Under the pieces are notes generated by a model. It was not told where the DNA came from, searched no databases, and worked only from the letters and a program-made list of their open reading frames with translations. From sequence record OQ718158.1: a stretch of DNA of 64,000 nt; one strand, written 5' to 3'. The stretch is from Escherichia phage vB_Ec-M-J. Below are positions 2,533-15,770 of the stretch, in pieces; position 1 is the first letter of the stretch; each line of letters begins with the position of its first letter. Position numbers and translations under genes: made by a program.

Positions 2533-2772
2533 ATGGCTAAATCAAAAATGTTCTTAGGTCACAAAAACAAAACTCATTGGAATGTAAGCCTTTGGATTAA
2601 TAACGATGAGTCATTGTACCGGTTGGCCCAGGACTTTATTAACGATAGCACTAATCGCAATGATGCGGCCCGTCATATGATGTTATTTTTAGAACAGACT
2701 GGACAAGATAAAACACCGGACGGATTCAAATATAGCACTACTGCGATCCGTGCGGCGATGGTTGGAATGTAA
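2533..2772 (+). CDS. hypothetical early protein; paralog of 4636..4875
   Basis: track ORF; shares HKNKTHWNVSLWINN...TPDGFKYSTTAIRAAMVGM with 4636 gene. Confidence 0.7.
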   Translation: MAKSKMFLGHKNKTHWNVSLWINNDESLYRLAQDFINDSTNRNDAARHMMLFLEQTGQDKTPDGFKYSTTAIRAAMVGM

Positions 2773-2798
2773 TAGAATAGAATTTATTTAAAGTACTA

Positions 2799-2823
2799 TT
2801 GCACGGGGATAGTACTTTATAAT
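2799..2823 (+). promoter_or_regulatory. degenerate promoter (short spacer)
   Basis: TTGCAC-13-TATAAT; the homologous element at 15302 has an intact 17-bp spacer. Confidence 0.3.
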
Positions 2824-2860
2824 AGTGTTTTATTCATACACCAACGATAAGGGCAACAGC

Positions 2861-3127
2861 ATGAATATTAAGTATTTTGCGACGCGTGAACAAGCTCGGA
2901 TCGCCGCACGGCAGGACGGGGCAACGTTTAAAGATATGGGCGTACAATCGGAACGTGGTAAACGTTGGGCCATTGTAAAGCGTAGTACCGCCAGATCATT
3001 ACAGTACTGGTTAGCGGCCTTAAAAAGTCCCGATAGTGTATCGCGTCGAGTGGTAGAAATAAAGCTCGACCGAAAGGGCAACCGCGTGACTGTGTACCGT
3101 ACTAAAAAGATTGCAGTACTTGAATAA
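2861..3127 (+). CDS. hypothetical early protein; paralog of 15375..15770
   Basis: start moved to ATG after RBS AAGGG; shares KYFATREQARIAAR...RKGNRVTVY with 15375 gene. Confidence 0.6.
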   Translation: MNIKYFATREQARIAARQDGATFKDMGVQSERGKRWAIVKRSTARSLQYWLAALKSPDSVSRRVVEIKLDRKGNRVTVYRTKKIAVLE

Positions 3128-3134
3128 AAAGTAC

Positions 3135-3193
3135 TTGCAAACTATGTTTAATGGCGTATAATGTTTTACATCGAGAGCGGGAACACTTCCCGC
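3135..3193 (+). promoter_or_regulatory. early promoter + 5' stem-loop
   Basis: TTGCAA-16-TATAAT-GTTTTACATC; hairpin GCGGGAAcacTTCCCGC. Confidence 0.65.
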
Positions 3194-3214
3194 CTATAAC
3201 CTGGAGTAATAAAA

Positions 3215-3445
3215 ATGACTAATATGTATATGACTGAAGTTAAAACCGTAAAAGATACTACCACGAATAAAACTACTTACTTACAGCGGATCTGCGGTGT
3301 ATGGCAACGTATCAGCAAATCAAAGTACTTTAAATTAACATCATATGCAAACCGTTCGGATTCATTCAGTACTGAAATAAAAGGTAATAAAGTACACCAA
3401 TACGGCACTTATTATTATTATAGCCTGGACGCGATTGCAGTCTAA
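3215..3445 (+). CDS. hypothetical early protein (76 aa)
   Basis: track ORF; promoter + RBS GGAG. Confidence 0.6.
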   Translation: MTNMYMTEVKTVKDTTTNKTTYLQRICGVWQRISKSKYFKLTSYANRSDSFSTEIKGNKVHQYGTYYYYSLDAIAV

Positions 3446-3475
3446 GCAGTTTACAAATCTTTACAATTGCCGGTA

Positions 3476-3504
3476 TTGACTTATTTTGTCAGTACTGGCA
3501 TAAT
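3476..3504 (+). promoter_or_regulatory. sigma70-like promoter upstream of conserved box
   Basis: TTGACT-17-CATAAT. Confidence 0.5.
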
Positions 3505-3536
3505 GTATTCATTGGCAGATAAGCCGTAGCCCATAG

Positions 3537-3565
3537 GGTGCGGGAGTGTATCTATAGAAAAATTA
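3537..3565 (+). promoter_or_regulatory. conserved ~29-bp box (TAGCCCAyAGGGTGC..GTGTATCTAT)
   Basis: one of about 10 copies in the window, always 25-50 bp downstream of a promoter. Confidence 0.5.
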
Positions 3566-3567
3566 GT

Positions 3568-3600
3568 TTAGTACAGTTACAATTGTGCACCCGGTGGGTT
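3568..3600 (-). promoter_or_regulatory. inverted copy of conserved box
   Basis: reverse complement of GTGCACCCGGTGGGTTAGC matches the box. Confidence 0.45.
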
Positions 3601-3619
3601 AGCTGTTGTCATGGGGTAT

Positions 3620-3648
3620 ATTATGCCAGTACTTGATAATGCTGTCAA
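3620..3648 (-). promoter_or_regulatory. leftward promoter convergent with 3476 promoter
   Basis: minus strand TTGACA-17-CATAAT. Confidence 0.45.
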
Positions 3649-3693
3649 TACTTTTTTAATATTCAGTACTGAAAACTATTTTTAAAAAGTACT

Positions 3694-3720
3694 TGCAAAC
3701 TATGTTTAAAGGCGTATAAT
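3694..3720 (+). promoter_or_regulatory. early promoter (no immediate hairpin; long leader)
   Basis: TTGCAA-15-TATAAT-GTTTTACATC. Confidence 0.6.
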
Positions 3721-3810
3721 GTTTTACATCAGGACGGGGAACGAAATAAGTAACTTCCCGTTAAGTAGCCCAGGAGTAAGGCACACGAAAAACTCCCCTG
3801 ATAAAATAGT
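3721..3810 (+). promoter_or_regulatory. structured ~90-nt leader, duplicated at 14175..14262
   Basis: CAGGACGGGGAACGAAA.AAGTAAC..CCCGTTAAGTAG.CCAGGAGTAAG...AAAAACTCCCCTGATAAAATAG nearly identical in both copies. Confidence 0.5.
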
Positions 3811-3838
3811 TTGACAATTGTTTTTAAAAGCGTATAAT
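3811..3838 (+). promoter_or_regulatory. second (tandem) promoter before 3871 gene
   Basis: TTGACA-16-TATAAT. Confidence 0.5.
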
Positions 3839-3870
3839 ACTTACATCAACTACTGAATGAGGGTTACAAA

Positions 3871-4545
3871 ATGAAAACTATCACTACTACTACTTTCGTT
3901 ATGGATTTTTCTGAATTGAATGAGGGTTGCAAAGCGAAAACTGTCACTAATACTACTTTCGTTATGGATTTTTCTGAATTGAACGCAGAACAAAAAACGT
4001 CAGCTATCGAACTGGTTCGGGAACGTGAAAAAAACTTAAACGATGATTATTTTTCTGAAAGTGAAATTGAATACTATAAAGAAACAGTACTACCGGAATA
4101 TGGCATTAATGACGCTGAAATACAATTCAGTGGTTTTTGGTCCCAGGGTGACGGTGCATCAATCAGTACTGACCACGTTGACGCAGTGAAGTTTTTACGC
4201 AAGGTAAGAGCATTAACTAAATATCGCTCAATCCGTCACTTGCTGAATGAAGATGATTTGGCGATGAGTGTAAAGCGTTCTCACTCCCACTACTCGCATG
4301 AGAATACTGTAAGCGGGTACATTGAATCGGCTTACACTGATTTAACCGCAAAACAAGAAACGTTAGTTAATGAGCTTGAGGAACTACTCACTGAAACTAT
4401 TCGTGAATTATCCCGCAAGTTGTACCGTGATTTAGAGAATGCATATGAGGATCAATTCACTACTGAAAACATTACGGCACTGATTGAGGGTAACGAATAT
4501 CAATTCAATGTTATTAATGGCGTAGTAGAATCAATCGAATATTAA
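3871..4545 (+). CDS. hypothetical protein (224 aa) with N-terminal tandem duplication
   Basis: track ORF; TTTFVMDFSELN(E/A) repeated twice near N-terminus. Confidence 0.7.
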   Translation: MKTITTTTFVMDFSELNEGCKAKTVTNTTFVMDFSELNAEQKTSAIELVREREKNLNDDYFSESEIEYYKETVLPEYGINDAEIQFSGFWSQGDGASISTDHVDAVKFLRKVRALTKYRSIRHLLNEDDLAMSVKRSHSHYSHENTVSGYIESAYTDLTAKQETLVNELEELLTETIRELSRKLYRDLENAYEDQFTTENITALIEGNEYQFNVINGVVESIEY

Positions 4546-4557
4546 TTTAAAAAGTAC

Positions 4558-4619
4558 TTGCAAACTAAGTTTAAAGGCGTATAATACTTTATATCGAGGC
4601 GGGGAGTGGTTCCCCGCTC
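4558..4619 (+). promoter_or_regulatory. early promoter + 5' stem-loop
   Basis: TTGCAA-16-TATAAT; hairpin GAGGCGGGGAgtggTTCCCCGCTC. Confidence 0.65.
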
Positions 4620-4635
4620 AAACGAGGATTAAAAA

Positions 4636-4875
4636 ATGGCTAGTACTAAAACTTACAACGGGCACAAAAACAAAACTCATTGGAATGTTTCCTTATGGAT
4701 TAATAACGGTGAGTCATTGTATCGGCTTGCTCAAAGTTGCATCGCACAAAGTAGAACTAAAGATATTGCTGCGGAATGTATGTACCGCAGATTAAAAGCC
4801 AACGGTACTACTACAACGCCGGACGGATTCAAGTATAGCACTACGGCGATCCGTGCTGCAATGGTTGGAATGTAA
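4636..4875 (+). CDS. hypothetical early protein; paralog of 2533..2772
   Basis: track ORF; conserved N- and C-terminal blocks with 2533 gene. Confidence 0.7.
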   Translation: MASTKTYNGHKNKTHWNVSLWINNGESLYRLAQSCIAQSRTKDIAAECMYRRLKANGTTTTPDGFKYSTTAIRAAMVGM

Positions 4876-4895
4876 TATTCAGTACTGTAACAATG

Positions 4896-4920
4896 GCGGG
4901 GAATGGTTCCCGCCTTTATT
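4896..4920 (+). terminator. hairpin + T-rich tail (terminator or 5' stabiliser)
   Basis: GGCGGGGAAtggTTCCCGCC then TTTATT. Confidence 0.45.
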
Positions 4921-4933
4921 GAGGGTTTATCTA

Positions 4934-5194
4934 ATGAGTAAAGTAATTAGCTATACAGTACTAAGCAAGTCATTATCTATTAGCCAGTGCACCGATGGTT
5001 ATTGGCTATTTGATGAAACGCGTGGAATGAATTTAGCTATGCGTGCAAAAACTGCTGAGGCGGCGTATCTTGAGGCACTGGAATACTACCAGGAACGTTT
5101 AACGGAAGTAGAAGAAGATTATAAAAGCCTCAAAGCGAAAGTAGATCATTTCGTCGGTCAATTCATCGAGGAAGACGACGACAAACAATATTGA
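4934..5194 (+). CDS. hypothetical early protein (86 aa)
   Basis: start moved to ATG after RBS GAGGG; track start 4853 runs through the hairpin. Confidence 0.55.
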   Translation: MSKVISYTVLSKSLSISQCTDGYWLFDETRGMNLAMRAKTAEAAYLEALEYYQERLTEVEEDYKSLKAKVDHFVGQFIEEDDDKQY

Positions 5195-5203
5195 AAAAGT
5201 ACT

Positions 5204-5261
5204 TGCAATTAGTTTTAAGTACTGTATAATGGTTTACATCAAAGGGAGAAATGGTTCTCCC
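5204..5261 (+). promoter_or_regulatory. early promoter + 5' stem-loop
   Basis: TTGCAA-15-TATAAT; hairpin GGGAGAAatggTTCTCCC. Confidence 0.65.
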
Positions 5262-5280
5262 TGGTAATGAGGAAAATAAA

Positions 5281-5502
5281 ATGGCTAATATCACTACTCT
5301 TTCCCAACTGGAAGCACTGGTTAAATCTATGCGGGAACATGCCGACAAAATCGGCGTACAAGATCCAGCCGTTTGCTTCTGCGACGAATTGAATGATGAT
5401 ACCCTGGTAATAGCAGAAGTCCAGGACGTTTCTAACTATTCCTCGCGTTACACTGGCGGCGTAGCAAATAAAGGTGACTTCTGTTTATACCTTACAAAAT
5501 AA
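5281..5502 (+). CDS. hypothetical early protein (73 aa)
   Basis: start moved to ATG after RBS GAGG; track start 5251 lies in hairpin. Confidence 0.6.
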   Translation: MANITTLSQLEALVKSMREHADKIGVQDPAVCFCDELNDDTLVIAEVQDVSNYSSRYTGGVANKGDFCLYLTK

Positions 5503-5505
5503 CAA

Positions 5506-5537
5506 CGCGGGGAGATAATAACTCCCCGTTACTTTTT
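5506..5537 (+). terminator. rho-independent terminator candidate
   Basis: CGGGGAGataataaCTCCCCG then TTACTTTTT. Confidence 0.5.
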
Positions 5538-5608
5538 CAGTACTGAATCATTTAATAGACGGATCTCGGCACCCGGTGGGTTAGTGACTGTTTCGTCTTG
5601 ATGTAGTA

Positions 5609-5637
5609 ATTATGCCAGTACTGGATGCACTTGTCAA
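5609..5637 (-). promoter_or_regulatory. leftward promoter reading into inverted box copy
   Basis: minus strand TTGACA-17-CATAAT; GCACCCGGTGGGTTAG downstream. Confidence 0.4.
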
Positions 5638-5670
5638 CAATTATTTTTCAAATACTTTTTATTAAAATAC

Positions 5671-5725
5671 TTGCAATTAGTTTTTAAACGCGTATAATGT
5701 TTTGCATAGGGGGAGCGGTTCCCCT
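5671..5725 (+). promoter_or_regulatory. early promoter + 5' stem-loop
   Basis: TTGCAA-16-TATAAT; hairpin GGGGGAGcggTTCCCC. Confidence 0.6.
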
Positions 5726-5745
5726 GGTAACTAAGGAATAAGAAA

Positions 5746-5982
5746 ATGGTCGAACAAATCAAATCAACGTCTTCGAATGTAACGGGAACGGTAGCACACT
5801 TTACTAGTGATGAATCGCGGGGCGTTCCCTATTGTGCTGTACATGTAAACACTGAGGGTAACTACTGGTTTACGGTTTACGGATCATATTCATTTGGACG
5901 GCCAGGGCATCAAAAAATTCTGGATAAAGTACAACCAACGGGTAAAAATATCACTGCCGAAATGTTTTATAAAAAATCATAA
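5746..5982 (+). CDS. hypothetical early protein (78 aa)
   Basis: track ORF; RBS AAGGAA. Confidence 0.6.
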   Translation: MVEQIKSTSSNVTGTVAHFTSDESRGVPYCAVHVNTEGNYWFTVYGSYSFGRPGHQKILDKVQPTGKNITAEMFYKKS

Positions 5983-5987
5983 AGTAC

Positions 5988-6046
5988 TTGCAATTAGTTT
6001 TTAGTACTGTATAATATTTTACATCGCAAGGGGGAGCGGTTCCCCC
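5988..6046 (+). promoter_or_regulatory. early promoter + 5' stem-loop
   Basis: TTGCAA-16-TATAAT; hairpin GGGGGAGcggTTCCCCC. Confidence 0.6.
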
Positions 6047-6066
6047 TGGTAACTAAGGATAATCAA

Positions 6067-6366
6067 ATGAAAATTGCAATCATCGCCCTGGCTTTATCTG
6101 TTTCCTCTTTCGCTGTTAATGCGTCATTAGATGTAAGTAGTGAAAAATTCATTCAGTGCACTGTTGCAATGACCGATGAAAGAACTGGCGAGATTGTATT
6201 AAAGGATTTAGAGATCCAGCCGGAAGCATTTAAAAACGGGCCGTTCCATGAAGAAGACGAAAAAGGTAGCACGACAATTTATTACGATGCCAGTACTAAA
6301 CGCGGTTCGGTCACTGTAATGGATACTGAGAAAGTAACTCATACTGGCGTTATTAATTGCCGTTGA
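6067..6366 (+). CDS. secreted/periplasmic small protein (signal peptide)
   Basis: N-terminus MKIAIIALALSVSSFAVNA-S looks like a Sec signal peptide. Confidence 0.65.
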   Translation: MKIAIIALALSVSSFAVNASLDVSSEKFIQCTVAMTDERTGEIVLKDLEIQPEAFKNGPFHEEDEKGSTTIYYDASTKRGSVTVMDTEKVTHTGVINCR

Positions 6367-6387
6367 TAGATACTACGGGGTAACATC

Positions 6388-6618
6388 ATGACTAAGCGAA
6401 TTGTTTTACTTAACGAAAGCAGTACTACACAACTACTTAACGCCGTGCATTATGATATTGAAACGAGCGTTAATCTTATCAGTACTGTCGTACTGTTGGA
6501 CACTGGAAAGGTCGCCAATGATAAAGCGATTGCAGGTATATTAACGGATCTTGAGCCTGGTAGCAGTGCACCCATAACGTTAAATGGTAAAGTGTTTAAT
6601 ATTTTACTCACTGATTAA
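6388..6618 (+). CDS. hypothetical protein (76 aa)
   Basis: track ORF directly after 6067 gene; RBS GGGG. Confidence 0.55.
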   Translation: MTKRIVLLNESSTTQLLNAVHYDIETSVNLISTVVLLDTGKVANDKAIAGILTDLEPGSSAPITLNGKVFNILLTD

Positions 6619-6624
6619 GTACAT

Positions 6625-6650
6625 AGCCCACCTGGTGGGCTTTTTTTGTT
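6625..6650 (+). terminator. rho-independent terminator
   Basis: AGCCCACctgGTGGGCT then TTTTTTTG. Confidence 0.7.
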
Positions 6651-6701
6651 TTTGTAGTATCGTAGTACTGAGATACTTTGAAAATAGTTTTAAAAAAGTA
6701 G

Positions 6702-6729
6702 TTGACATTACCGCAGAAAAGCGTAGAAT
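6702..6729 (+). promoter_or_regulatory. sigma70-like promoter with long leader
   Basis: TTGACA-16-TAGAAT. Confidence 0.5.
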
Positions 6730-6852
6730 GTATTACATCAAGACGGGGAGCACTAAGTAGACCGCCAGTAAGTCGAACGAAAAACTGGACACGTCGAGAA
6801 AACTTTGATACACTAATAAACGTAAACTAAACTTTAATTGAGGATTTATAAA

Positions 6853-7335
6853 ATGGCTAATGTAAAATCATTCATCAAAGCACTGGTAGCAAATGAAACT
6901 AACGTCGCGGCTGAGATCCTGGCTGAACTGGATAACGATACCATGAAAGCGGTACGCAATAATTTTAACATCGCGTACAGTACTGCGAAAGAACTACAAG
7001 CAAATAAAGCGGCAGAAATTGAAGCGGCAAAGGCTGCCCGTGAAGCAGAACTACAAGCAACAATCGAAAGTATTCAGGCGGCAGTAGTTGGATTGGATCT
7101 GGAAGTAGTTACAGAGATGGCACAAAAAGCCCTGGCGGTTAAGTATGGGGAAGACAAGCCAGAAGTAAAAGCCAAAAAATGGATTCAGGAACGCGTAGCG
7201 GTAGTACTGGATAATGGGGAAGAATATCTGATTCCGGTGCGTGGTAACTGTATTGCGGTAGTACTGGACGCGATTAACGCCAGCGGTATGACTCGCGAGG
7301 AATGGATCGAATCTCATCGCAAAGTTGAAGCATAA
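6853..7335 (+). CDS. hypothetical protein, Ala/Glu/Lys-rich helical N-terminus (160 aa)
   Basis: track ORF; start moved from TTG to ATG after RBS GAGG. Confidence 0.65.
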   Translation: MANVKSFIKALVANETNVAAEILAELDNDTMKAVRNNFNIAYSTAKELQANKAAEIEAAKAAREAELQATIESIQAAVVGLDLEVVTEMAQKALAVKYGEDKPEVKAKKWIQERVAVVLDNGEEYLIPVRGNCIAVVLDAINASGMTREEWIESHRKVEA

Positions 7336-7356
7336 CAATTAAAGTACTGAATCACT

Positions 7357-7386
7357 AGCCCACTGTATAAGTGGGCTTTTTTGTGT
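7357..7386 (+). terminator. rho-independent terminator
   Basis: AGCCCACtgtataaGTGGGCT then TTTTTTG. Confidence 0.7.
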
Positions 7387-7393
7387 TTATCGT

Positions 7394-7500
7394 TTACCAG
7401 GCCACCAGCACCGCCTAGAAACGATTCTAACGTATTAAACTGTTTATCTGATGCATTGCCCTAGCTGGTGGCGTGAAGGTCGTTAGAATGCGATTGAGAG
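7394..7500. repeat. long imperfect inverted repeat
   Basis: CCACCAGC..GCTGGTGG and CGATTCTAACG..CGTTAGAATGCG arms; CGTTAGAATGCG also at ~1486 and ~11794. Confidence 0.45.
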
Positions 7501-7536
7501 CGTTTAAAGTATTTTGCAAAAAGTAATAAAAAGTAC

Positions 7537-7597
7537 TTGCACGATTAAGAGATTAGCGTATAATGTTTTACATCGAGAGGGGGAAACGGTTCTCCTT
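7537..7597 (+). promoter_or_regulatory. early promoter + 5' stem-loop
   Basis: TTGCAC-16-TATAAT-GTTTTACATC; hairpin GGGGGAAacggTTCTCC. Confidence 0.6.
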
Positions 7598-7619
7598 CCA
7601 AATCAAAGGAATCAAAACA

Positions 7620-7847
7620 ATGGCTATCGTAATCACTCGCGTAACTGGTACTACTGGCAATTCTTCTACTGTTGCTGTAATTACTAATAAGAAAGGTGCG
7701 GAATTGCATTTTGCAATGGATAAATGGGCCGTTAATGAGTTCGGTCAGTGGGCAAGTGTAGCATACATTGAAACCTATCAAGTGCCGTCGATTAGTTTAA
7801 CTGATTTGGGCGTTGAGCGTATCCTTTGCCTTGATGAATTAAATTAA
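7620..7847 (+). CDS. hypothetical early protein (75 aa)
   Basis: start moved to ATG after RBS AAGGA; track start 7563 lies in promoter. Confidence 0.65.
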   Translation: MAIVITRVTGTTGNSSTVAVITNKKGAELHFAMDKWAVNEFGQWASVAYIETYQVPSISLTDLGVERILCLDELN

Positions 7848-7853
7848 AAAAGT

Positions 7854-7914
7854 ACTTGCAAAGTAAATCGAATAAAGTATAATACATTACATCAAGGGGA
7901 GAAATGGTTCTCCC
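7854..7914 (+). promoter_or_regulatory. early promoter + 5' stem-loop
   Basis: TTGCAA-18-TATAAT; hairpin GGGGAGAAatggTTCTCCCC. Confidence 0.6.
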
Positions 7915-7932
7915 CACTACAAGGAAACTAAA

Positions 7933-8076
7933 ATGAAAACTTGTCAATGTGGTCAGAAATCTATTACGGGTTTAAAGCGGGGCGTTGCTCTTTGCCAGTA
8001 CCATTATAATTTACAAGTATGGGGTAAAGAATGGGCCGACCAGGTGGAAGCAGCAAAGAAAGCAAAAAGTAAGTAA
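7933..8076 (+). CDS. small Cys/His-containing protein (47 aa), not in ORF track
   Basis: ATG after RBS AAGGAA; CQCG...LCQYH could bind metal. Confidence 0.5.
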   Translation: MKTCQCGQKSITGLKRGVALCQYHYNLQVWGKEWADQVEAAKKAKSK

Positions 8077-8094
8077 AATATTATCACAGTACTA

Positions 8095-8123
8095 TTGACA
8101 TAGTTTGATAGTACTGGCATAAT
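8095..8123 (+). promoter_or_regulatory. class-B early promoter
   Basis: ATTATCACAGTACTATTGACA-17-CATAAT; same cassette at 8389, 11231, 11502, 19423. Confidence 0.6.
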
Positions 8124-8156
8124 AGATTTTATCAAGACAACTAAGAGGAAACAATA

Positions 8157-9967: not shown

Positions 9968-10120
9968 ATGAAACAATACAACGCTCGGTTTGATGTTACT
10001 ATCGGTAACGGCAAAGGTCAATTCTCTTTCAGTACTCGCAAAAGTTATACAGAAAACTTCCTGCGTAATTGTGCACTGACCGCCGCACAAATTAAACATT
10101 ACTTTCAGGCTAAAAAATGA
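9968..10120 (+). CDS. hypothetical small protein (50 aa)
   Basis: start moved to ATG after RBS AGGAG. Confidence 0.55.
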   Translation: MKQYNARFDVTIGNGKGQFSFSTRKSYTENFLRNCALTAAQIKHYFQAKK

Positions 10121-10206
10121 AATCATTAGCTTACTATAGTTCTGCGGTGATCGGTGCATTGATCGCGGCGTTGTTAGTAACCTATCTATTCTTTATGGTG
10201 ATTTAA
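10117..10206 (+). CDS. small hydrophobic peptide (29 aa, one predicted TM helix)
   Basis: ATGA overlap with upstream stop; MKSLAYYSSAVIGALIAALLVTYLFFMVI. Confidence 0.4.
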   Translation: MKSLAYYSSAVIGALIAALLVTYLFFMVI

Positions 10207-10350
10207 ATGAATCCAACAGGTTTAAACTATAAAAGTTGTTCGGCGTTTACGAAAGCAAATAAAGCGAATGCACGTAAAGCGAAAGTACAGGAATACATCA
10301 AGCAAGGCATGACGCGAAAAGCGGCGATTATAAAAGCTAAAAATAAATGA
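10207..10350 (+). CDS. small Lys/Ala-rich basic protein (47 aa)
   Basis: ATG immediately after upstream TAA. Confidence 0.4.
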   Translation: MNPTGLNYKSCSAFTKANKANARKAKVQEYIKQGMTRKAAIIKAKNK

Positions 10351-10440
10351 AAAAAGTGGTTGACTCCGGTCAGCCATTTTGCTATTATATATTCATTGAG
10401 AGATAGCTCACTAGCCCACAGGGTGCATAAGTGTATCTAT
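10351..10440 (+). promoter_or_regulatory. composite element: terminator-like hairpin overlapping promoter, then conserved box
   Basis: AAAAAGTGGTTGACtccgGTCAGCC; TTGACT-17-TATTAT; TAGCCCACAGGGTGCATAAGTGTATCTAT. Confidence 0.55.
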
Positions 10441-10481
10441 TATATGAGTATTGAGTACTGAAAACTATTTTTAAAAAGTAC

Positions 10482-10541
10482 TTGCAAACTATCTCAATAA
10501 GCGTATAATGTTTTACATCGAGAGGGGGAAACGGTTTCCCC
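10482..10541 (+). promoter_or_regulatory. early promoter + 5' stem-loop
   Basis: TTGCAA-16-TATAAT-GTTTTACATC; hairpin GGGGGAAacggTTTCCCC. Confidence 0.65.
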
Positions 10542-10561
10542 TGGTAATAAGGAAACAAATC

Positions 10562-10903
10562 ATGACTATCTCAATTGCTCAATCTAACTTTGAAAATGAA
10601 ATCATCGCCCAGGCACTGCGTTTAAATGATGGTCGGGCCGAAATTAATTACGGTTTCAATTCAGGCGGTTGCGAAAACTATCAGTACTTTGTAACGGCTG
10701 ATGGCGGTGTCCTGGGTATCAATACAGTTATTGTAAACATCCAAAAAATTAATTTCAATGATCCAGACGATAGCCAGTTTTACATCACTGGCGTAGACGT
10801 GAACTATGAGGATGACTCACTAACTGATGATCACACTGGCGAGCGGTTAGAAAGTGCATACGGTGAAGATGATTATCAGTCCGGTCCAGAAGATTTCGAA
10901 TAA
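10562..10903 (+). CDS. hypothetical acidic protein (113 aa)
   Basis: start moved to ATG after RBS AAGGAA. Confidence 0.65.
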   Translation: MTISIAQSNFENEIIAQALRLNDGRAEINYGFNSGGCENYQYFVTADGGVLGINTVIVNIQKINFNDPDDSQFYITGVDVNYEDDSLTDDHTGERLESAYGEDDYQSGPEDFE

Positions 10904-10916
10904 TATAAAAAATAGT

Positions 10917-10976
10917 TTGACAATAGATTATAGTACTGTATAATTAATTACATCAAGGGGAGAAAAACTTCTCCCC
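10917..10976 (+). promoter_or_regulatory. early promoter + 5' stem-loop
   Basis: TTGACA-16-TATAAT; hairpin GGGGAGAAaaacTTCTCCCC. Confidence 0.65.
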
Positions 10977-10998
10977 ACTAACAGAGAGAGAAAACAAA

Positions 10999-11211
10999 AT
11001 GGCTAATATCCGGTCGAAATTAAAAAATGCAAAACAAGTTTTATTTTCAGATCATGAATACTTTAATAAAGATATTACAGGAGTTACAAGTATCAAGGAA
11101 GTAAAAGAAAAAACCGGCGTTTTGTGTGATGTGCGATTAGTTGGGACATTTGGGAATAACGTGCTATATCGCTGCGGTGATTACAATTTTACACTGACTA
11201 TCATTAACTAA
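10999..11211 (+). CDS. hypothetical early protein (70 aa)
   Basis: track ORF; RBS GAGAGAGA. Confidence 0.6.
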   Translation: MANIRSKLKNAKQVLFSDHEYFNKDITGVTSIKEVKEKTGVLCDVRLVGTFGNNVLYRCGDYNFTLTIIN

Positions 11212-11230
11212 AAATATTATCACAGTACTA

Positions 11231-11259
11231 TTGACATAGTTTGATAGTACTGACATAAT
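11231..11259 (+). promoter_or_regulatory. class-B early promoter
   Basis: TTGACA-17-CATAAT. Confidence 0.55.
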
Positions 11260-11294
11260 AACTTTTATCAACTACACTACTAAGGAATTAAAAA

Positions 11295-11474
11295 ATGGCT
11301 ATCATCGCAAAAACTGAAATCGTTGGTCTGGATTCTATCATCATGACGTTTGAAGATCAAAAAGGTATGTATGTAGTTTCCTATGGTGATTATGTTCGGG
11401 AGTATGAAACGGTAGACGAAGCCTTTGAAAGTTATATTCGCCAGGTGAATAAAGCATACGACGACTACCGCTAA
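11295..11474 (+). CDS. small protein (59 aa), not in ORF track
   Basis: ATG after RBS AAGGAA downstream of class-B promoter. Confidence 0.5.
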   Translation: MAIIAKTEIVGLDSIIMTFEDQKGMYVVSYGDYVREYETVDEAFESYIRQVNKAYDDYR

Positions 11475-11501
11475 AATATATTACCAGTACTATTAAATCT
11501 A

Positions 11502-11529
11502 TTGACAACGTTTGATAGTACTGTATAAT
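11502..11529 (+). promoter_or_regulatory. class-B early promoter
   Basis: TTGACA-16-TATAAT. Confidence 0.55.
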
Positions 11530-11573
11530 AAGTTTTATAAACAGTAGTTAACTTAACCTAAGAGAGAAACAAA

Positions 11574-11717
11574 ATGATCGCACTGGATTCATTCATCGAC
11601 GCAGTACTGGCAAAAACTGGCGAGGATCTGACCGCAGAACAATACGCGATGATCGAGCAATGTCAGCAAAACGGTAAATCGGTGAAAGATACTGTTAAGA
11701 TTATCCGCAAGATGTAA
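11574..11717 (+). CDS. small protein (47 aa), not in ORF track
   Basis: ATG after RBS AAGAGAGAAA. Confidence 0.5.
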   Translation: MIALDSFIDAVLAKTGEDLTAEQYAMIEQCQQNGKSVKDTVKIIRKM

Positions 11718-11723
11718 TATTAT

Positions 11724-11752
11724 AGCCCACTGGTTAACGCTGGTGGGCTTTA
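11724..11752 (+). terminator. terminator-like hairpin
   Basis: AGCCCACtggttaacgctgGTGGGCT then TTTAAT. Confidence 0.45.
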
Positions 11753-11816
11753 ATCATTTACCCTATACAATGCCAGTACTAAACCGTTTATCTCGTTAGA
11801 ATGCGTTACAGGACGT

Positions 11817-12020
11817 TTGACAATGATTAGCATGAAATCAGTACAAAAACAAATAGAAACATTATCAAAAATTAAACGTAAACAATACTCGTTAGAATAT
11901 ACAATCAATGGTAACTATCATCTAATGAAAGAAAATAATTTTATAGTCATTGATGAATCATTGCAAGTTATTAGTATAGTACTGAAAGCATTAATTAATG
12001 ATAGAAAAAAATTAAAATAA
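11817..12020 (+). CDS. hypothetical protein (67 aa), AT-rich
   Basis: track ORF; no clear RBS or promoter. Confidence 0.4.
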   Translation: MTMISMKSVQKQIETLSKIKRKQYSLEYTINGNYHLMKENNFIVIDESLQVISIVLKALINDRKKLK

Positions 12021-12023
12021 TTG

Positions 12024-12052
12024 TTGACATACAATGCCAGTACTGGCATAAT
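12024..12052 (+). promoter_or_regulatory. sigma70-like promoter upstream of box and GATC cluster
   Basis: TTGACA-17-CATAAT. Confidence 0.5.
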
Positions 12053-12077
12053 ACTTACATCAAGACGAGAACGTCAC

Positions 12078-12106
12078 TAACCCATAGGGTGCACAAATGT
12101 AACTAT
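12078..12106 (+). promoter_or_regulatory. conserved box copy
   Basis: TAACCCATAGGGTGCACAAATGTAACTAT. Confidence 0.45.
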
Positions 12107-12110
12107 ATAA

Positions 12111-12190
12111 TATCGATCAATAAATGATCAAAAAAGTACTGGATCAATTTAGCATAAGGAGTATAATTCTGATCAATTCTTGATCAAAGG
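12111..12190. repeat. cluster of five GATCAA repeats
   Basis: cGATCAAtaaatGATCAAaaaagtactgGATCAAttt..ctGATCAAttcttGATCAAagg. Confidence 0.6.
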
Positions 12191-12348
12191 CAATATACGC
12201 AGTTGAATTTATATAGACAGTACAAAGGCGTTACTATCCGTGGTAATGCTGATGGATATGTAGTATCATACGGTTTGAATAAGATAAGCACTAGTAGTAT
12301 TATTGTAGCATTACAGTACTATAGTATTTTTATAATGAGGTTAAAATA

Positions 12349-12606
12349 ATGGCTGTTGGATTCGCGAAGGACGGGGCCGAGCAAGACGAGATTAACGCAG
12401 TTATTCAGGCCGCTGTAAACCACGCTAGAACGCAAATTAACGCACAAATAGAATCACTGATACATTGCCTCGACTGTGGCGATAAAATCCCTGAGAATCG
12501 CCGCCAGGTCGTTAAGGGGTGTAAGTACTGTATCACTTGCCAGGAGGATCATGATAGTACTTTTAAACGTCAACCGCGTAATTGTTGGCATAGATCTATG
12601 AGATAA
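12349..12606 (+). CDS. TraR/DksA-family C4 zinc-finger protein
   Basis: C-x2-C-x15-C-x2-C-x2-C (HCLDCGDKIPENRRQVVKGCKYCITCQ), typical of TraR/DksA zinc fingers. Confidence 0.7.
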   Translation: MAVGFAKDGAEQDEINAVIQAAVNHARTQINAQIESLIHCLDCGDKIPENRRQVVKGCKYCITCQEDHDSTFKRQPRNCWHRSMR

Positions 12607-12612
12607 AAAGTA

Positions 12613-12640
12613 TTGACAGTACTATCCAGTAGTGTATAAT
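12613..12640 (+). promoter_or_regulatory. early promoter
   Basis: TTGACA-16-TATAAT-GTTTTATATC. Confidence 0.55.
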
Positions 12641-12669
12641 GTTTTATATCTTAACTGAGGATAGAAATC

Positions 12670-13026
12670 ATGGGAATACAACATATCACGCGTACTACTG
12701 ACAATGGCGAGATCACTGGCTATCAAGTACAGGGCAAAGTAGCACAATTGCAGTACTGGTTTGTTAAACGTGGAATCATTGCACCGGATCTTGATTATGA
12801 CCGTGTAGCGTTTATTGATTCTCTTTATGTTGATCCTGATAGTCGGGGGAATGGTGAAGGTAACGAATTAATGAATGCCTTTATTGATGCCGCCGATGAT
12901 TCAGATTGTATCATCTTAGAATGCGATACGGGAGAAGATAACGCCTTTAATCTTAAAGAATGGTATGAAGGTTTCGGATTCGAGGTACTGATCGATAGTG
13001 AATATCCTATCATGATTTTATCATAG
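12670..13026 (+). CDS. GNAT-like acetyltransferase (putative)
   Basis: acetyl-CoA motif A-like VDPDSRGNGEGNELMNAF (R-x-x-G-x-G) and C-terminal Y..GFGFE. Confidence 0.5.
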   Translation: MGIQHITRTTDNGEITGYQVQGKVAQLQYWFVKRGIIAPDLDYDRVAFIDSLYVDPDSRGNGEGNELMNAFIDAADDSDCIILECDTGEDNAFNLKEWYEGFGFEVLIDSEYPIMILS

Positions 13027-13028
13027 TA

Positions 13029-13089
13029 CTTGCATTTAGTTTTCAGTACTGTATAATAGTTTACATGAAGGGGAGAATAGTTCTCCCCA
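13029..13089 (+). promoter_or_regulatory. early promoter + 5' stem-loop
   Basis: TTGCAT-17-TATAAT; hairpin GGGGAGAAtagTTCTCCCC. Confidence 0.6.
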
Positions 13090-13105
13090 CTACAAGGAAA
13101 GACAA

Positions 13106-13294
13106 ATGGAAAACTTATCAAGTATTTTAGTACAAGATGATTTCGGTAATCCTGGAAGTGCTATCATTGTTCGGGGTAATAAAGCAACGTTTGTTATTGC
13201 TGGTGGACCCGTACAGCGTAGCATTAAAAATAATGCTGTTACCATTAATAATGTACGCTATCGCTTAGATAAAGAATTAATTCATAAACTGTAA
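13106..13294 (+). CDS. hypothetical early protein (62 aa)
   Basis: track ORF; RBS AAGGAAAGA. Confidence 0.6.
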   Translation: MENLSSILVQDDFGNPGSAIIVRGNKATFVIAGGPVQRSIKNNAVTINNVRYRLDKELIHKL

Positions 13295-13302
13295 AAAAGT
13301 AC

Positions 13303-13363
13303 TGGACAATAGATTATAGTACTGTATAATAAGTTACATGAAGGGGAGAAAATGATTCTCCCC
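13303..13363 (+). promoter_or_regulatory. early promoter + 5' stem-loop
   Basis: TGGACA-16-TATAAT; hairpin GGGGAGAAaatgaTTCTCCCC. Confidence 0.55.
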
Positions 13364-13380
13364 ACTAAGAGGAAAGAAAA

Positions 13381-13593
13381 ATGCAAGGTCAACTAATCGT
13401 TCGTAAATGGTCTGATACTAACGCTAAACCGTGGGATGTACAATACATCGCCCCCAATGGTGAATCCAGATATCAACCAGGTGTAACGCATAGTACTGAG
13501 CAATTCGCCGCCGCTCATCGTGAACGTCTGTTACAATCAATGCAGCAAGGTTTCGGTGAAAAATTCATTCAGGATCATTGGCTGAAAGATTAA
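13381..13593 (+). CDS. hypothetical early protein (70 aa)
   Basis: track ORF; RBS AAGAGGAAAG. Confidence 0.6.
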   Translation: MQGQLIVRKWSDTNAKPWDVQYIAPNGESRYQPGVTHSTEQFAAAHRERLLQSMQQGFGEKFIQDHWLKD

Positions 13594-13600
13594 AAAGTTC

Positions 13601-13660
13601 TTGCACAGTACTGAATAAAGTGTATAATGTTTTATATCGAGAGGGGAATAGTTCCCCTCC
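13601..13660 (+). promoter_or_regulatory. early promoter + 5' stem-loop
   Basis: TTGCAC-16-TATAAT; hairpin GAGGGGAAtagTTCCCCTC. Confidence 0.6.
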
Positions 13661-13679
13661 TAACAAAAAGGAAAGTATA

Positions 13680-13853
13680 ATGATCCAAGTAGAATTATCA
13701 GTACTGAAAGATCTATTTTATCGGTTAGGTACTAATGGCGAGTATCCTAAAAGTGATACCGCAAAACTTTTTGTATCACTCGACTTATGGCAACGCGAAC
13801 AATTAGTAATGTCGTGGCGTAAAGGTAAAGCAGATCGCGAGGTGAAAGCATGA
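13680..13853 (+). CDS. hypothetical early protein (57 aa)
   Basis: start moved to ATG after RBS AAGGAAAG; track start 13578 is a TTG in the promoter. Confidence 0.55.
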   Translation: MIQVELSVLKDLFYRLGTNGEYPKSDTAKLFVSLDLWQREQLVMSWRKGKADREVKA

Positions 13854-13999
13854 AAGAATTCTTATTTGAAGTAGTGTTTCAAGGTGTCGGTAGTAACCAA
13901 CTGATTCGCTCAAGTGGTTACAATGTTAACCAGGCATGGAATAACATTAAACAAATGTACCCGAACGCTATCACATATCGCAACCCGAAAGAAGTTTAA
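13850..13999 (+). CDS. small protein (49 aa), not in ORF track
   Basis: ATGA overlap with upstream stop; coordinates +/-1. Confidence 0.4.
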   Translation: MKEFLFEVVFQGVGSNQLIRSSGYNVNQAWNNIKQMYPNAITYRNPKEV

Positions 14000-14005
14000 A
14001 AATAA

Positions 14006-14092
14006 TTGAAAAAGGGATTGACTCCGGTCAGTCCCTTTGCTATTATATACGCATAGAAACAAATTAGCCCACCGGGTGCATAAATGTATCTA
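14006..14092 (+). promoter_or_regulatory. composite element: hairpin/promoter + conserved box
   Basis: AAAAAGGGATTGACtccgGTCAGTCCC; TTGACT-17-TATTAT; TAGCCCACCGGGTGCATAAATGTATCTAT. Confidence 0.55.
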
Positions 14093-14146
14093 TTGTTTGC
14101 TGGTGGCTAGTACTATCAAGTACTGAAAACTATTTTTAAAAAGTAC

Positions 14147-14174
14147 TTGCAAAGTATCACGATAAGCGTATAAT
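14147..14174 (+). promoter_or_regulatory. early promoter (long leader)
   Basis: TTGCAA-16-TATAAT-GTTTTACATC. Confidence 0.6.
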
Positions 14175-14262
14175 GTTTTACATCAGGACGGGGAACGAAA
14201 CAAGTAACCCCGTTAAGTAGTCCAGGAGTAAGACATACGAAAAACTCCCCTGATAAAATAGT
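14175..14262 (+). promoter_or_regulatory. structured leader, second copy of 3721..3810
   Basis: near-identical sequence to 3721..3810. Confidence 0.5.
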
Positions 14263-14290
14263 TTGACAATAGAAAGTAAACGAGTATAAT
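14263..14290 (+). promoter_or_regulatory. second (tandem) promoter before 14324 gene
   Basis: TTGACA-16-TATAAT. Confidence 0.5.
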
Positions 14291-14323
14291 ACTTACATCA
14301 ACCACTGATAAGGAAACATTAAA

Positions 14324-14599
14324 ATGCGGATTCTACTGACAGCTAACGAAATCGAACAAGTACTGACTACTAACCTGGAAGACTGGAAACGTGAAGCAGA
14401 TATCCAGGCGGTTCAATGGCTTAATGATAAGTTAACGCCGGATGATTTAAGTAAGATTGTAGATCCTCAATTCTACGAAGATATTCACGACACCGCGTTA
14501 AGCGTCGAGGATGTACTTGATAAGCACTACATTGATACTGATTTACATGTTTACGGTCGTAAAAACTTTATCACTATTCACGACATTTACAATACTTAA
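14324..14599 (+). CDS. hypothetical early protein (91 aa)
   Basis: track ORF; RBS AAGGAAA. Confidence 0.65.
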   Translation: MRILLTANEIEQVLTTNLEDWKREADIQAVQWLNDKLTPDDLSKIVDPQFYEDIHDTALSVEDVLDKHYIDTDLHVYGRKNFITIHDIYNT

Positions 14600-14602
14600 G
14601 TA

Positions 14603-14662
14603 TTGACAAAGTATCTTAGTACTGTATAATAGTTTACATCGAGAGGGGAAACGGTTCCCCTC
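14603..14662 (+). promoter_or_regulatory. early promoter + 5' stem-loop
   Basis: TTGACA-16-TATAAT; hairpin GAGGGGAAacggTTCCCCTC. Confidence 0.65.
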
Positions 14663-14685
14663 CTAACAAAGAGAGAGAAATAAAA

Positions 14686-14868
14686 ATGGCTAAGTGCACT
14701 ATCTGCAAGAAAGAAATAGTATTAGTTCCAAGTGCCCGTGAACGTGCCGCTCGGTTTGGTGGCAAAGCGTCAGACTATACAAAAATGTTTACTGCCCATA
14801 CAGCTTGCCAGGTAGCAAAACGTTCACAAGAAAGCGTAGAATTAATGCGTAAACTTTCCAAAAAATAA
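14686..14868 (+). CDS. small basic protein with CxxC..C (60 aa)
   Basis: track ORF; MAKCTICKK...HTACQ. Confidence 0.6.
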   Translation: MAKCTICKKEIVLVPSARERAARFGGKASDYTKMFTAHTACQVAKRSQESVELMRKLSKK

Positions 14869-14871
14869 GTA

Positions 14872-14931
14872 TTGACAAAGTATCTTAGTACTGTATAATA
14901 GTTTACATCAAGCGAGGGGAATGGTTCCCCT
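14872..14931 (+). promoter_or_regulatory. early promoter + 5' stem-loop
   Basis: TTGACA-16-TATAAT; hairpin GAGGGGAAtggTTCCCCTC. Confidence 0.65.
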
Positions 14932-14955
14932 CCTAACAAAGAGAGAGAAATAAAA

Positions 14956-15279
14956 ATGGCTATGATCCTTACCCAGAAAGTAGAACTGAAAATTGTAACC
15001 TCCTTTGACATTAACGTTAATCGGTGGACTGATTCACACGGCAATACTTACCACTCTTGCTACGTGTCTGCGTTAATTGGCGACCGCTGGGAAGACCTGG
15101 GACACGAAACCTTTACATACGGTTACGGTACACAAGGCGAATACACGGGCTTGGAGATCATTAAAGAAACCGTTATAGGTTTCAACCCGAAAGAAAAAGT
15201 TATTCACCGCATCGAGGAAGAGATCAACAAAGAAATAACAGTTCGATACAACGATGTAAAACGTAAGAAAGACATGTAA
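14956..15279 (+). CDS. hypothetical early protein; paralog of 8459..8782
   Basis: track ORF; conserved RWTDSHGNTYHSC block. Confidence 0.7.
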   Translation: MAMILTQKVELKIVTSFDINVNRWTDSHGNTYHSCYVSALIGDRWEDLGHETFTYGYGTQGEYTGLEIIKETVIGFNPKEKVIHRIEEEINKEITVRYNDVKRKKDM

Positions 15280-15301
15280 TAGAATCCATTTAAAGTACTA
15301 T

Positions 15302-15330
15302 TTGACATTGCCCAGATAGTACTTTATAAT
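15302..15330 (+). promoter_or_regulatory. sigma70-like promoter
   Basis: TTGACA-17-TATAAT. Confidence 0.55.
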
Positions 15331-15374
15331 AGACTCTAACTTGTAGTACTAACTCAACTAATAGGATGTATACC

Positions 15375-15770
15375 ATGATTACTAAATTCTACGCTACCCG
15401 TGAAGCTGCCCGTATTGTTGCACGCGAGGAAGGAGCAGCATTTAAAGACATGGGCAAAGATGCACCGAAAGGTCAACGCTGGGCCGTACAGTTCAAAGAA
15501 ATCTCTGATATTGTGAATTCACCTGAGCCAGTACTGACAGCAGCAGAACTAAAACGAGCGGATATGCTGGCGGCAATACTTGACGCACAAGATGAGTTTA
15601 TCGCTGATTCTGATATCAAAGTACAGGTAAACCACACCGCATGGACTCACGCGGATCACCTGGCAAACCTTAAGCGTCCAAGTGAACTGATTCGCAACCA
15701 GAAAGAGATCCGACACGACCGTAAGGGTAATCGTGTAACAGTATACAGTAAACGCCGCCAGGTTATCTAA
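15375..15770 (+). CDS. hypothetical early protein; paralog of 2861..3127
   Basis: start moved to ATG aligning with paralog (MITKFYATRE); track start 15366 is also possible. Confidence 0.6.
   Translation: MITKFYATREAARIVAREEGAAFKDMGKDAPKGQRWAVQFKEISDIVNSPEPVLTAAELKRADMLAAILDAQDEFIADSDIKVQVNHTAWTHADHLANLKRPSELIRNQKEIRHDRKGNRVTVYSKRRQVI

Follow-up and report, generated by a model that had tools for sequence, protein, structure and literature searches.

Cassettes composed of a sigma-70 promoter and a stem-loop, known as PeSL, are found upstream of ORFans in T4-type phages, where genes are inserted, deleted and replaced (PMC2839356, PMC4122927). Passages of the report on phage vB_PcaM_CBB describe RpoD-like promoters clustered before short open reading frames (ORFs) that were read as early genes, along with a repeat 22 kb long and 22 ORFs considered paralogs (Buttimer et al. 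2017, PMC5259590), and passages of that on phage fEgEco12 give a direct terminal repeat (DTR) of 20,993 bp, called with PhageTerm and confirmed by restriction digests, as well as repeats of ~20 kb in related phages (PMC13070987). Here we analysed a 64,000-nt stretch of DNA of Escherichia phage vB_Ec-M-J (OQ718158.1), referred to as the window, and searched the ORFs of its first 21.5 kb for gene families. An original prediction had stated that three early genes of this region have diverged second copies 2-12 kb away; the three pairs are designated F1 (DUF7249/phrog_871; genes F1a and F1b), F2 (phrog_8127; F2s, the short form, and F2L, the long form) and F3 (phrog_6246; F3a and F3b), and their coordinates are given in Table 1. 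We found that the members of each pair are genuine homologs, and that they are probably old family members recruited or retained at different slots through the shuffling of promoter cassettes, not recent duplicates.

The BLASTP comparison of F1a and F1b gave 53 identical residues out of 79 (67%) without gaps (E 3e-38), and that of F3a and F3b gave 42 out of 107 (39%), also gapless (E 1e-29). F2s and F2L were 35% identical (E 4e-19), the 44 identities being placed at both ends of the alignment, with a single insertion of ~45 residues in the longer copy. The alignments ran from end to end and their motifs were complex, so the homology that had been proposed was confirmed and similarity confined to low-complexity patches, which would have spoken against it, was not seen. 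All-vs-all BLASTP was carried out once over all the ORFs of the window and once more, permissively, over ~56 candidate genes; the three pairs were the only ones with an E value below 1e-3 among the ~56 ORFs of the first 21.5 kb. The next-best pair (E 0.008-0.009) was not reproduced by pairwise BLASTP, and the remaining matches arose from read-through of repeated non-coding cassettes. Genes 8157 and 11295, which look alike by eye and have a promoter subtype in common, were also considered as a pair and discarded, their similarity not being significant. Each of the three pairs fell in one PHROG family (E 1e-26 to 6e-41).

A megablast search with positions 2000-16000 of the window against phage genomes returned 171 records, headed by Asteriusvirus jumbo coliphages. 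The best records (fEgEco12, CRJP21, E9.1, 121Q, PBECO4 and G17) were 88-97% identical, and the matches were always split into 3-14 pieces covering 34-75% of the query. The window is the left end of a jumbo coliphage belonging to Asteriusvirus (Rak2/121Q-like). Position 2000 corresponded to position 1986 of fEgEco12, and the segment 1-21500 was collinear with 1-20968 of that phage, its endpoint being position 26 of the G17 record. This collinearity, together with the DTR reported for fEgEco12, places the whole region 2533-15770 inside the equivalent of the terminal repeat, whose right boundary, located through homology, would be near 21,525. In tblastn searches, records of 366-386 kb held each family gene twice as often as records of ~348 kb.

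The DTR region was an array of ~55 single-gene units, most of them headed by a cassette. From 1.6 to 21 kb we counted ~39 promoter-like cassettes in + orientation, or approximately one for each small gene. The promoter scan found 103 sigma-70-like sites against 67 +/- 7 in shuffled sequences, with eleven 12/12 matches on the + strand. The commonest cassettes (class A) consist of AAAAAGTACTTGCAA, a 16-nt spacer, TATAAT, GTTTTACATC, a hairpin with a GGGGA...TCCCC stem, a Shine-Dalgarno (SD) sequence and the ATG; their hairpins in the 5' untranslated region (5'UTR), GGGGAA..TTCCCC, lie downstream of the -10 and had folding energies of -14 to -17 kcal/mol (z about -3). Class C cassettes carry a perfect TTGACA inside the inverted repeat AGTACTAT...ATAGTACT, followed by a TG-extended CATAAT, and were found upstream of gene 8157, F3a, gene 11295 and one more gene. 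The flanks of the F1 and F3 pairs showed only the similarity that is generic to cassettes, and the search in Rfam found nothing in 1-22 kb. The cassette architecture and the position in the repeat are the reasons for calling these genes early: the sigma-70 consensus promoters and the terminal-repeat location fit that part of the original prediction, and the six genes would be expressed early.

Neighbour-joining trees were built for the three families. F1a was found in seven of the seven Asteriusvirus genomes examined, and F1b was missing in fEgEco12, 121Q and G17, where its slot was filled by other genes. The family as a whole was present in 327 phage records. Among these were rV5-like coliphages of ~135-155 kb, T4-like cyanophages and phages of Ralstonia and Vibrio. 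F1a was 87-91% identical to proteins of rV5-like phages of ~150 kb, as against 67% to F1b; an exclusive clade of F1a and F1b was obtained in 0 of 200 bootstraps, and a clade of F1a with the rV5-like proteins that left out F1b in all 200. Phage A7_1 (Vequintavirinae) had a gene with 90.8% DNA identity to F1b exactly from ATG to stop, which is placed behind a class-C cassette, F1b of the window being behind a class-A one. The trees thus indicate that the copies of pair 1 are not sister copies produced by duplication in this genome.

The two F3 genes are not sister copies either. An exclusive clade of F3a and F3b appeared in 0 of 500 bootstraps, F3b was grouped with metagenomic sequences in 378 of them, and the two genes lie behind different cassette types, that of F3a being class C. 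In ph0011 and phAPEC6 the F3a slot was occupied by a replacement allele only ~33% identical to F3a; this allele was 83% identical to gp160 of the Phapecoctavirus Schickermooser, with which it was grouped in 499 of 500 bootstraps (hhalign 99.9%).

Pair 2 behaved otherwise, and it may represent a true duplication within the lineage. Every Asteriusvirus carried two F2 copies; Erwinia phage Hallingskeid and Klebsiella phages of the RaK2 type carried one. Among the Asteriusvirus genomes sampled EJP2 is the most divergent, and its 125-aa gene located behind F1 was grouped with F2s in 453 of 500 bootstraps. It follows that F2s descends from a long form; it has lost the weakly conserved linker of ~45 residues and has kept both conserved domains. 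F2s, F2L and the EJP2 copy were monophyletic in 238 of 500 bootstraps (48%). The best argument for a duplication of pair 2 is the shared upstream hairpin. The homology reaches beyond the gene, taking in the hairpin-promoter, as far as the stop codon of the gene before it. The sizes of the F2 genes are reversed in EJP2, with the 125-aa form behind F1 and a very divergent 98-aa form behind F3. In the AlphaFold2 (AF2) model of F2L an N-terminal beta-alpha-beta-beta domain was connected by a helical linker to a C-terminal beta-hairpin; its mean predicted local distance difference test (pLDDT) was 75.7 and its predicted template modelling score (pTM) 0.32, the latter due to the flexible linker, and the search of this model against PDB folds gave no match at E <= 0.001. 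With regard to the diverged second copies that had been announced, the homology therefore held for the three pairs, the implied origin by duplication in the genome did not for pairs 1 and 3, and for pair 2 the tree was compatible with it.

The comparison of gene order with related phages, which had also been proposed as a check, showed overall collinearity, with F1b and F3a as variable genes that were absent or replaced. The junctions were localised by chaining the BLASTN matches of the window to six close relatives. Twenty-three of the 39 unique junction endpoints fell inside cassettes, which make up 23% of the region (binomial p 2e-6). In 23 of the 52 junctions the flanking matches (high-scoring segment pairs, HSPs) overlapped by 20-125 bp in one genome, so that a single cassette in that genome aligned to both cassettes bordering the extra gene in the other; instances of such extra genes lie at 2217-2450, 8157-8369, 14686-14868 and 17.8-18.2 kb. 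The gene between the cassettes at 14603-14685 and 14872-14955 was absent in 121Q and phAPEC6, with an HSP overlap of 103-108 bp. Overlap of this kind is what recombination between direct repeats predicts, and it is a stronger argument than the enrichment of endpoints. Intergenic segments of A7_1 matched ~20 cassettes of the window at 75-97% identity.

Some further observations concern gene content along the array. The 77-aa gene at 2217-2450, between the first gene and F1a, was present in the window and in PBECO4 and missing from five of the six close relatives; it is bordered by two near-identical class-A cassettes and has an overlap signature of 80 bp, that is, a clean insertion of a gene plus a cassette. 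A7_1 and Schickermooser, unrelated coliphages of ~150 kb, had the same promoter-hairpin cassette family, and, when compared with positions 1700-15000 of the window, homologs in another order of at least six more genes (1769-2122, 4944-5240, 7558-8072, 8092-8471, 10643-10869 and 10980-11313). The gene at 3871-4545 contained an internal tandem duplication (TTTFVMDFSELN twice; 63 bp extra) with respect to fEgEco12, PBECO4, G17, ph0011 and phAPEC6.

The two F2 upstream regions were homologous from the stop codon that ends the gene before them (TAATAGAAT...) onwards, through AAAGTACTAT, a loop and then ATAGTACTTTATAAT. The consensus scan gave a 12/12 match at 15302-15330 and called nothing upstream of 2861. 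The original prediction had described the promoter of F2s as having a spacer 4 bp shorter than that of F2L, which was correct for the window (TTGCAC-13 nt-TATAAT at 2861 vs TTGACA-17 nt-TATAAT at 15375) and did not hold as a conserved promoter. The 10-bp arms of the inverted repeat and the TATAAT were invariant at the F2s site in eight genomes, in which the loop was TGCACGGGG, TGCACGGTG, CATTTTTTGCG (four genomes), CATTTTTTTGCG or CATTCTATGCG. A -35-like hexamer was lacking in six of the eight, and the 13-nt spacer was found in the window and in 121Q; in every genome examined the -35 was absent or displaced, and no -35-like hexamer lay 16-18 nt upstream of the -10. In the window the element has no -35 at functional distance and is followed by the U-rich stretch GTGTTTTATT. 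At the F2L site the whole element was invariant in seven genomes. The RNA of 2770-2835 folded at -20.5 kcal/mol (z -6.5) and that of the F2L-site element at -19.9 kcal/mol (z -6.6), no shuffled sequence being as stable, and both hairpins included the -10 box. The arms were invariant in all genomes, leaving no compensatory changes to score, so that the hairpin structure is supported by its energy and by the variability of the loop. In the window, the exact motif occurred at no place other than the two F2 sites. The same held for six of the seven genomes compared; EJP2 had it only upstream of the copy behind F1.

The element preceding F2s is better read as a putative conserved hairpin with a -10 box and without a workable -35 than as a short-spacer promoter, and F2s probably depends on the F1a cassette for most of its expression. 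The stem between F1a and F2s is long and stable but A/U-rich, and it was not called by the terminator scan; GUGUUUUAUU comes next, and the hairpin followed by this sequence might act as an attenuator or a processing site. The hairpin between F3b and F2L has no U tract.

All six genes were intact and of constant length in every genome that carried them (4-7 of the seven compared). The ratio of nonsynonymous to synonymous differences (pN/pS), pooled over seven genomes, was 0.10 for F1a, 0.09 for F1b, 0.19 for F2s, 0.25 for F2L, 0.41 for F3a and 0.11 for F3b, and the synonymous divergence (dS) between orthologs reached 0.3-0.6 for five of the six genes and 0.12 for F3a. None of the six genes is decaying, and all are under purifying selection, so that each copy does something. 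The synonymous divergence between the copies in this genome, another proposed check, was estimated at ~1.0 for pair 1; for pairs 2 and 3 it could not be computed (pS 0.82 and 0.84). The synonymous sites are then saturated or nearly so, and therefore the splits between the copies are old.

These results can be accounted for if the cassettes serve as long, similar direct repeats, homologous recombination between which would insert, delete and replace units made of a gene and its cassette. Such units would be exchanged inside the genus and also with unrelated virulent coliphages having this cassette family (Vequintavirinae and Stephanstirmvirinae). Pairs 1 and 3 would then come from separate acquisition or allele replacement, and pair 2 possibly from an old duplication, within the lineage, of a gene together with its upstream hairpin-promoter, after which the copy behind F1a would have lost its linker. 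Several points weigh against this account. Both the word early and the activity of the promoters rest on consensus matches; the trees are neighbour-joining trees of 79-118 columns, from which the direction and the number of transfers cannot be read; the monophyly of pair 2 had a bootstrap value of 48%; and function searches in Pfam, NCBIfam, PADLOC, PDB sequence profiles and by fold were uninformative for the three families. Enrichment of breakpoints is by itself a weak argument, since the indels that survive must be intergenic and intergenic DNA consists for the most part of cassettes. The topology of pair 1 would also result if, after an ancient duplication, one copy had moved to rV5-like phages. 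The opposite view, in which each pair is a gene duplicated inside the phage lineage that was then dispersed and diverged, agrees with the full-length homology of the three pairs and, for pair 2, with the homology extending upstream to the preceding stop codon, the confinement of the exact hairpin motif to the two F2 copies in six of seven genomes and the clade found in 48% of the bootstraps. Nevertheless, F1a is far nearer to the rV5-like proteins than to F1b, neither pair 1 nor pair 3 ever formed an exclusive clade, F3b went with metagenomic sequences, the saturated synonymous sites hold nothing that marks a recent event, and close relatives may have F1b and F3a, lack them or carry a replacement; we regard true paralogy of all three pairs as unlikely.

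We assign much the same low probability to F1, F2 and F3 being one combinatorial module, with F2 as a shared partner co-transcribed behind F1 or F3, so that F1a-F2s and F3b-F2L would be paralogous operons of two genes each. The two F2 copies of each Asteriusvirus genome (seven of seven) are preceded, 52-90 bp upstream, by an F1 or F3 gene, to which they are joined through the same hairpin without a class-A cassette, and a strong terminator-like hairpin follows F2L; by our own estimate, the chance of both F2 genes having an F1 or F3 upstream neighbour among ~55 genes is ~0.5%. Related arrangements were [F1-F2] plus [F3-F2] in EJP2, [F3-F1] in the Phapecoctavirus Schickermooser and [F2-F3] in the Avunavirus Av-05. 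However, in RaK2, phiKp_21, Hallingskeid and four metagenomic Rak2-like contigs the genes next to F2 or F3 were unrelated ones, A7_1 and phiITL-1 carry F1 alone, F2L has a perfect promoter of its own, and adjacency in coliphages may just reflect joint inheritance or transfer of neighbouring cassettes. If such a module did exist, the recurrent pairings of neighbours in three other coliphage groups would mean functional coupling, not shared descent. That one copy of each pair is a decaying remnant would concern above all F2s, which lacks ~45 residues of its EJP2 ortholog and of F2L, has no usable -35 in the element upstream and is preceded by a hairpin with a U-rich tail; but F2s is intact, with 264 nt in seven genomes, a pN/pS of 0.19 and a dS of up to 0.40, the deletion is confined to the poorly conserved linker and spares both conserved domains, and the pN/pS of the remaining copies was 0.09-0.41. 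Decay is largely refuted by these selection data, and we consider it very improbable. Finally, the proteins are short, which is all that speaks for chance or low-complexity matches; full-length E values of 4e-19 to 3e-38, the assignment of each pair to one PHROG family (E 1e-26 to 6e-41) and the compositional complexity of the conserved motifs leave practically no room for them. Old family members brought to, or kept at, different slots by cassette shuffling is thus the explanation that we prefer.

Function searches gave only DUF7249 in Pfam (for F1), sub-threshold noise in NCBIfam, nothing in PADLOC and a best E value of 0.067 with PDB profiles. The PDB profile search detected no structural relative of F1 by sequence, and the literature search found no paper on DUF7249. 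A profile search of 1.84 billion representative proteins recovered at least 528 clusters (50% identity, E <= 1e-3) of the F3 family, mostly of 90-135 aa, with the conserved motifs RW.D.(S)YGNTYHS, F.YGYG and DVKRKKDL. In some members F3 was the C-terminal domain of proteins of 200-590 aa; ten of these longer proteins showed no Pfam domain, hence no hint based on fusions. There is no Pfam model for F3, a large, confidently folding and unannotated phage protein family which would justify an entry. From their position and promoter type, the six proteins are most likely immediate-early and may act on the host, a proposal that we make with low confidence. A comparable case is phage T5, whose pre-early genes are small host-takeover genes with strong host-type promoters; they lie in a long direct terminal repeat, so that each packaged genome contains two copies of them. 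A two-step DNA injection of the T5 style is not known for Rak2-like phages.

Table 1. Position of the genes and elements discussed in the text (window coordinates unless another genome is named)
Feature	Position	Strand	Evidence or remarks
Region matching the direct terminal repeat (DTR)	1..21525	+	~56 small ORFs, ~39 promoter cassettes; collinearity with fEgEco12
Class-A cassette upstream of F1a: AGTACTTGCAA (-35), 16-nt spacer, TATAAT (2476-2481), 5'UTR hairpin GTGGGGAATAGTTCCCCAC, SD	2449..2532	+	Hairpin -17.2 kcal/mol, z -3.0
F1a, 79 aa, DUF7249/phrog_871	2533..2772	+	PF23907 45 bits (cut-off 27); phrog_871 E 1e-29
Inverted repeat AAAGTACTAT/ATAGTACTTT, 9-nt loop TGCACGGGG, abutting TATAAT (2818-2823)	2790..2823	+	Between F1a and F2s
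F2s, 88 aa, phrog_8127, short form without central linker	2861..3127	+	BLASTP, phrog, bootstrap grouping
Class-A cassette upstream of F1b	4553..4635	+	Promoter scan
F1b, 79 aa, DUF7249/phrog_871, accessory copy	4636..4875	+	PF23907 50.7 bits (cut-off 27)
Class-C cassette upstream of F3a: AGTACTAT-TGACATAGTTTG-ATAGTACT, TG-extended CATAAT	8382..8458	+	Identical copies at 8088, 11224
F3a, 107 aa, phrog_6246	8459..8782	+	BLASTP, phrog
Cassette upstream of F3b: TTGACA-16-TATAAT and GGGGAA..TTCCCC hairpin	14872..14955	+	Near-identical direct repeat of 14603-14685
F3b, 107 aa, phrog_6246	14956..15279	+	AF2 pLDDT 95.6, pTM 0.85
Same inverted repeat as at 2790, 14-nt loop TTGACATTGCCCAG with TTGACA (15302-15307), 17-nt spacer, TATAAT (15325-15330)	15292..15330	+	Between F3b and F2L
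F2L, 131 aa, phrog_8127, long form	15375..15770	+	Start at 15375 agrees with 131-aa database proteins
Terminator-like hairpin GGCGGGATCAGTTCCCGCC, then TTTTTT, directly 3' of F2L	15793..15821	+	Scan, fold; terminator annotated at the same place in the G17 record
EJP2 F2, 125 aa, behind F1	9344-9721 in one EJP2 stretch		
EJP2 F2, 98 aa, behind F3	5358-5654 in another EJP2 stretch		No AAAGTACTAT hairpin upstream

Other repeated elements were observed in the window. A non-coding repeat of ~200-250 bp was present in 4-5 copies (~3450-3870, 10317-10568, 13992-14308, 17265-17505 and 20040-20240); it showed no ORF and no Rfam match, and the four copies other than that at ~3450-3870 contained a hairpin with a 12-bp stem (AAAGGGATTGACTCCGGTCAGTCCCTTT or a variant), after which came TTGACT-17-TATTAT and a class-A cassette whose own hairpin was unusually long. 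Two adjacent genes had, at 16083-16120 and 16359-16396, an identical upstream/5' segment of ~60 bp with TTGACA-17-TACTAT and two AGTACT boxes, another cassette subtype, which produced a spurious N-terminal match of 20 aa when the ORFs were read from TTG. The palindrome AGTACT, often as CAGTACTG, was the most over-represented hexamer, with 258 occurrences in the window against 16.6 +/- 4 expected (~15-fold); it was dense at 1-21400 and 37300-64000 and was not found at ~21400-26700 and 28800-37300. Its distribution by reading frame was 62/40/66, with 90 occurrences in non-coding DNA, suggesting that selection acts on the DNA. An excess of 16- to 26-fold was also detected in fEgEco12, 121Q, PBECO4, EJP2, RaK2, phiKp_21, Hallingskeid and Rak2-like metagenomic contigs, and none in the rV5-like phages having genes in common with this region; for Rak2-like phage DNA as a whole the excess was 12- to 26-fold. 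In many cassettes the -35 was bracketed by two AGTACT boxes ~20-22 bp apart. The literature search for AGTACT with jumbo phage found nothing. Beyond the proposed boundary of the repeat, an AGTACT-free tandem array of more than 25 mutually similar genes of ~65-95 aa extended over 21594-29657 (21.6-29.7 kb), and several groups of similar genes of 100-200 aa were located at 27350-47000 (for example 27350/27703, 69% identity, and 31500/31808, 59%); the paralogy in these arrays was far more extensive than that of the three pairs.

In relation to the described systems, F1a and F1b passed the threshold of Pfam DUF7249 (PF23907)/phrog_871, a family without assigned function. Terminal repeats of ~20-22 kb full of short hypothetical ORFs are common to the window and, in the passages searched, to CBB (PMC5259590) and fEgEco12 (PMC13070987); those passages give no account of F1-F3, of the structure of the cassettes, of the junctions or of exchange with rV5-like phages, and in the text searched of the fEgEco12 paper (PMC13070987) the words promoter and paralog do not occur. 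Small multi-copy families are to be expected in the early regions of phages and paralogs have already been reported for Rak2-like phages, so that, as a finding on paralogs, the three pairs are modest.

The closest likeness was to PeSL (Arbiol et al. 2010, PMC2839356; Comeau et al. 2014, PMC4122927). In both cases there are many elements with a sigma-70 promoter and a stable, often polyG/polyC, stem-loop, concentrated in a hyperplastic or variable region, each one directly upstream of a small ORFan; indels and replacements are bounded by the elements, a single one being left where the gene is missing; and the stem-loop lies downstream of the -10 or spans the -35/-10, which correspond to published subclasses. 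The cassettes of the window have the sigma-70 consensus with A/T-rich sequence upstream, the adjacent stable stem-loop, the small-ORF setting and the element-bounded indels, with the GGGGAA..TTCCCC stem-loops downstream of the -10 and the AT-rich ones, upstream of F2, spanning the -35/-10. In contrast, PeSL belong to the T4-type lineage and their promoter and terminator activity and mini-circles were shown experimentally, whereas the cassettes of this Rak2-like jumbo phage are known from their sequence, form an array inside a long direct terminal repeat, contain AGTACT boxes and are a family common to rV5-like phages, the last two features being unlike the PeSL description. The case is a further instance, real but ordinary, of cassette-mediated shuffling of small early genes, and a worked example that the modular shuffling of the PeSL style, known from T4-type phages, probably also takes place in the terminal repeat of a Rak2-like jumbo phage. 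Jumbo phages and the unrelated rV5-like coliphages have the same cassette and several small genes in circulation between them, which defines a shared pool of immediate-early genes that would be candidates for host takeover or counter-defence; this pool explains why second copies need not be duplicates.

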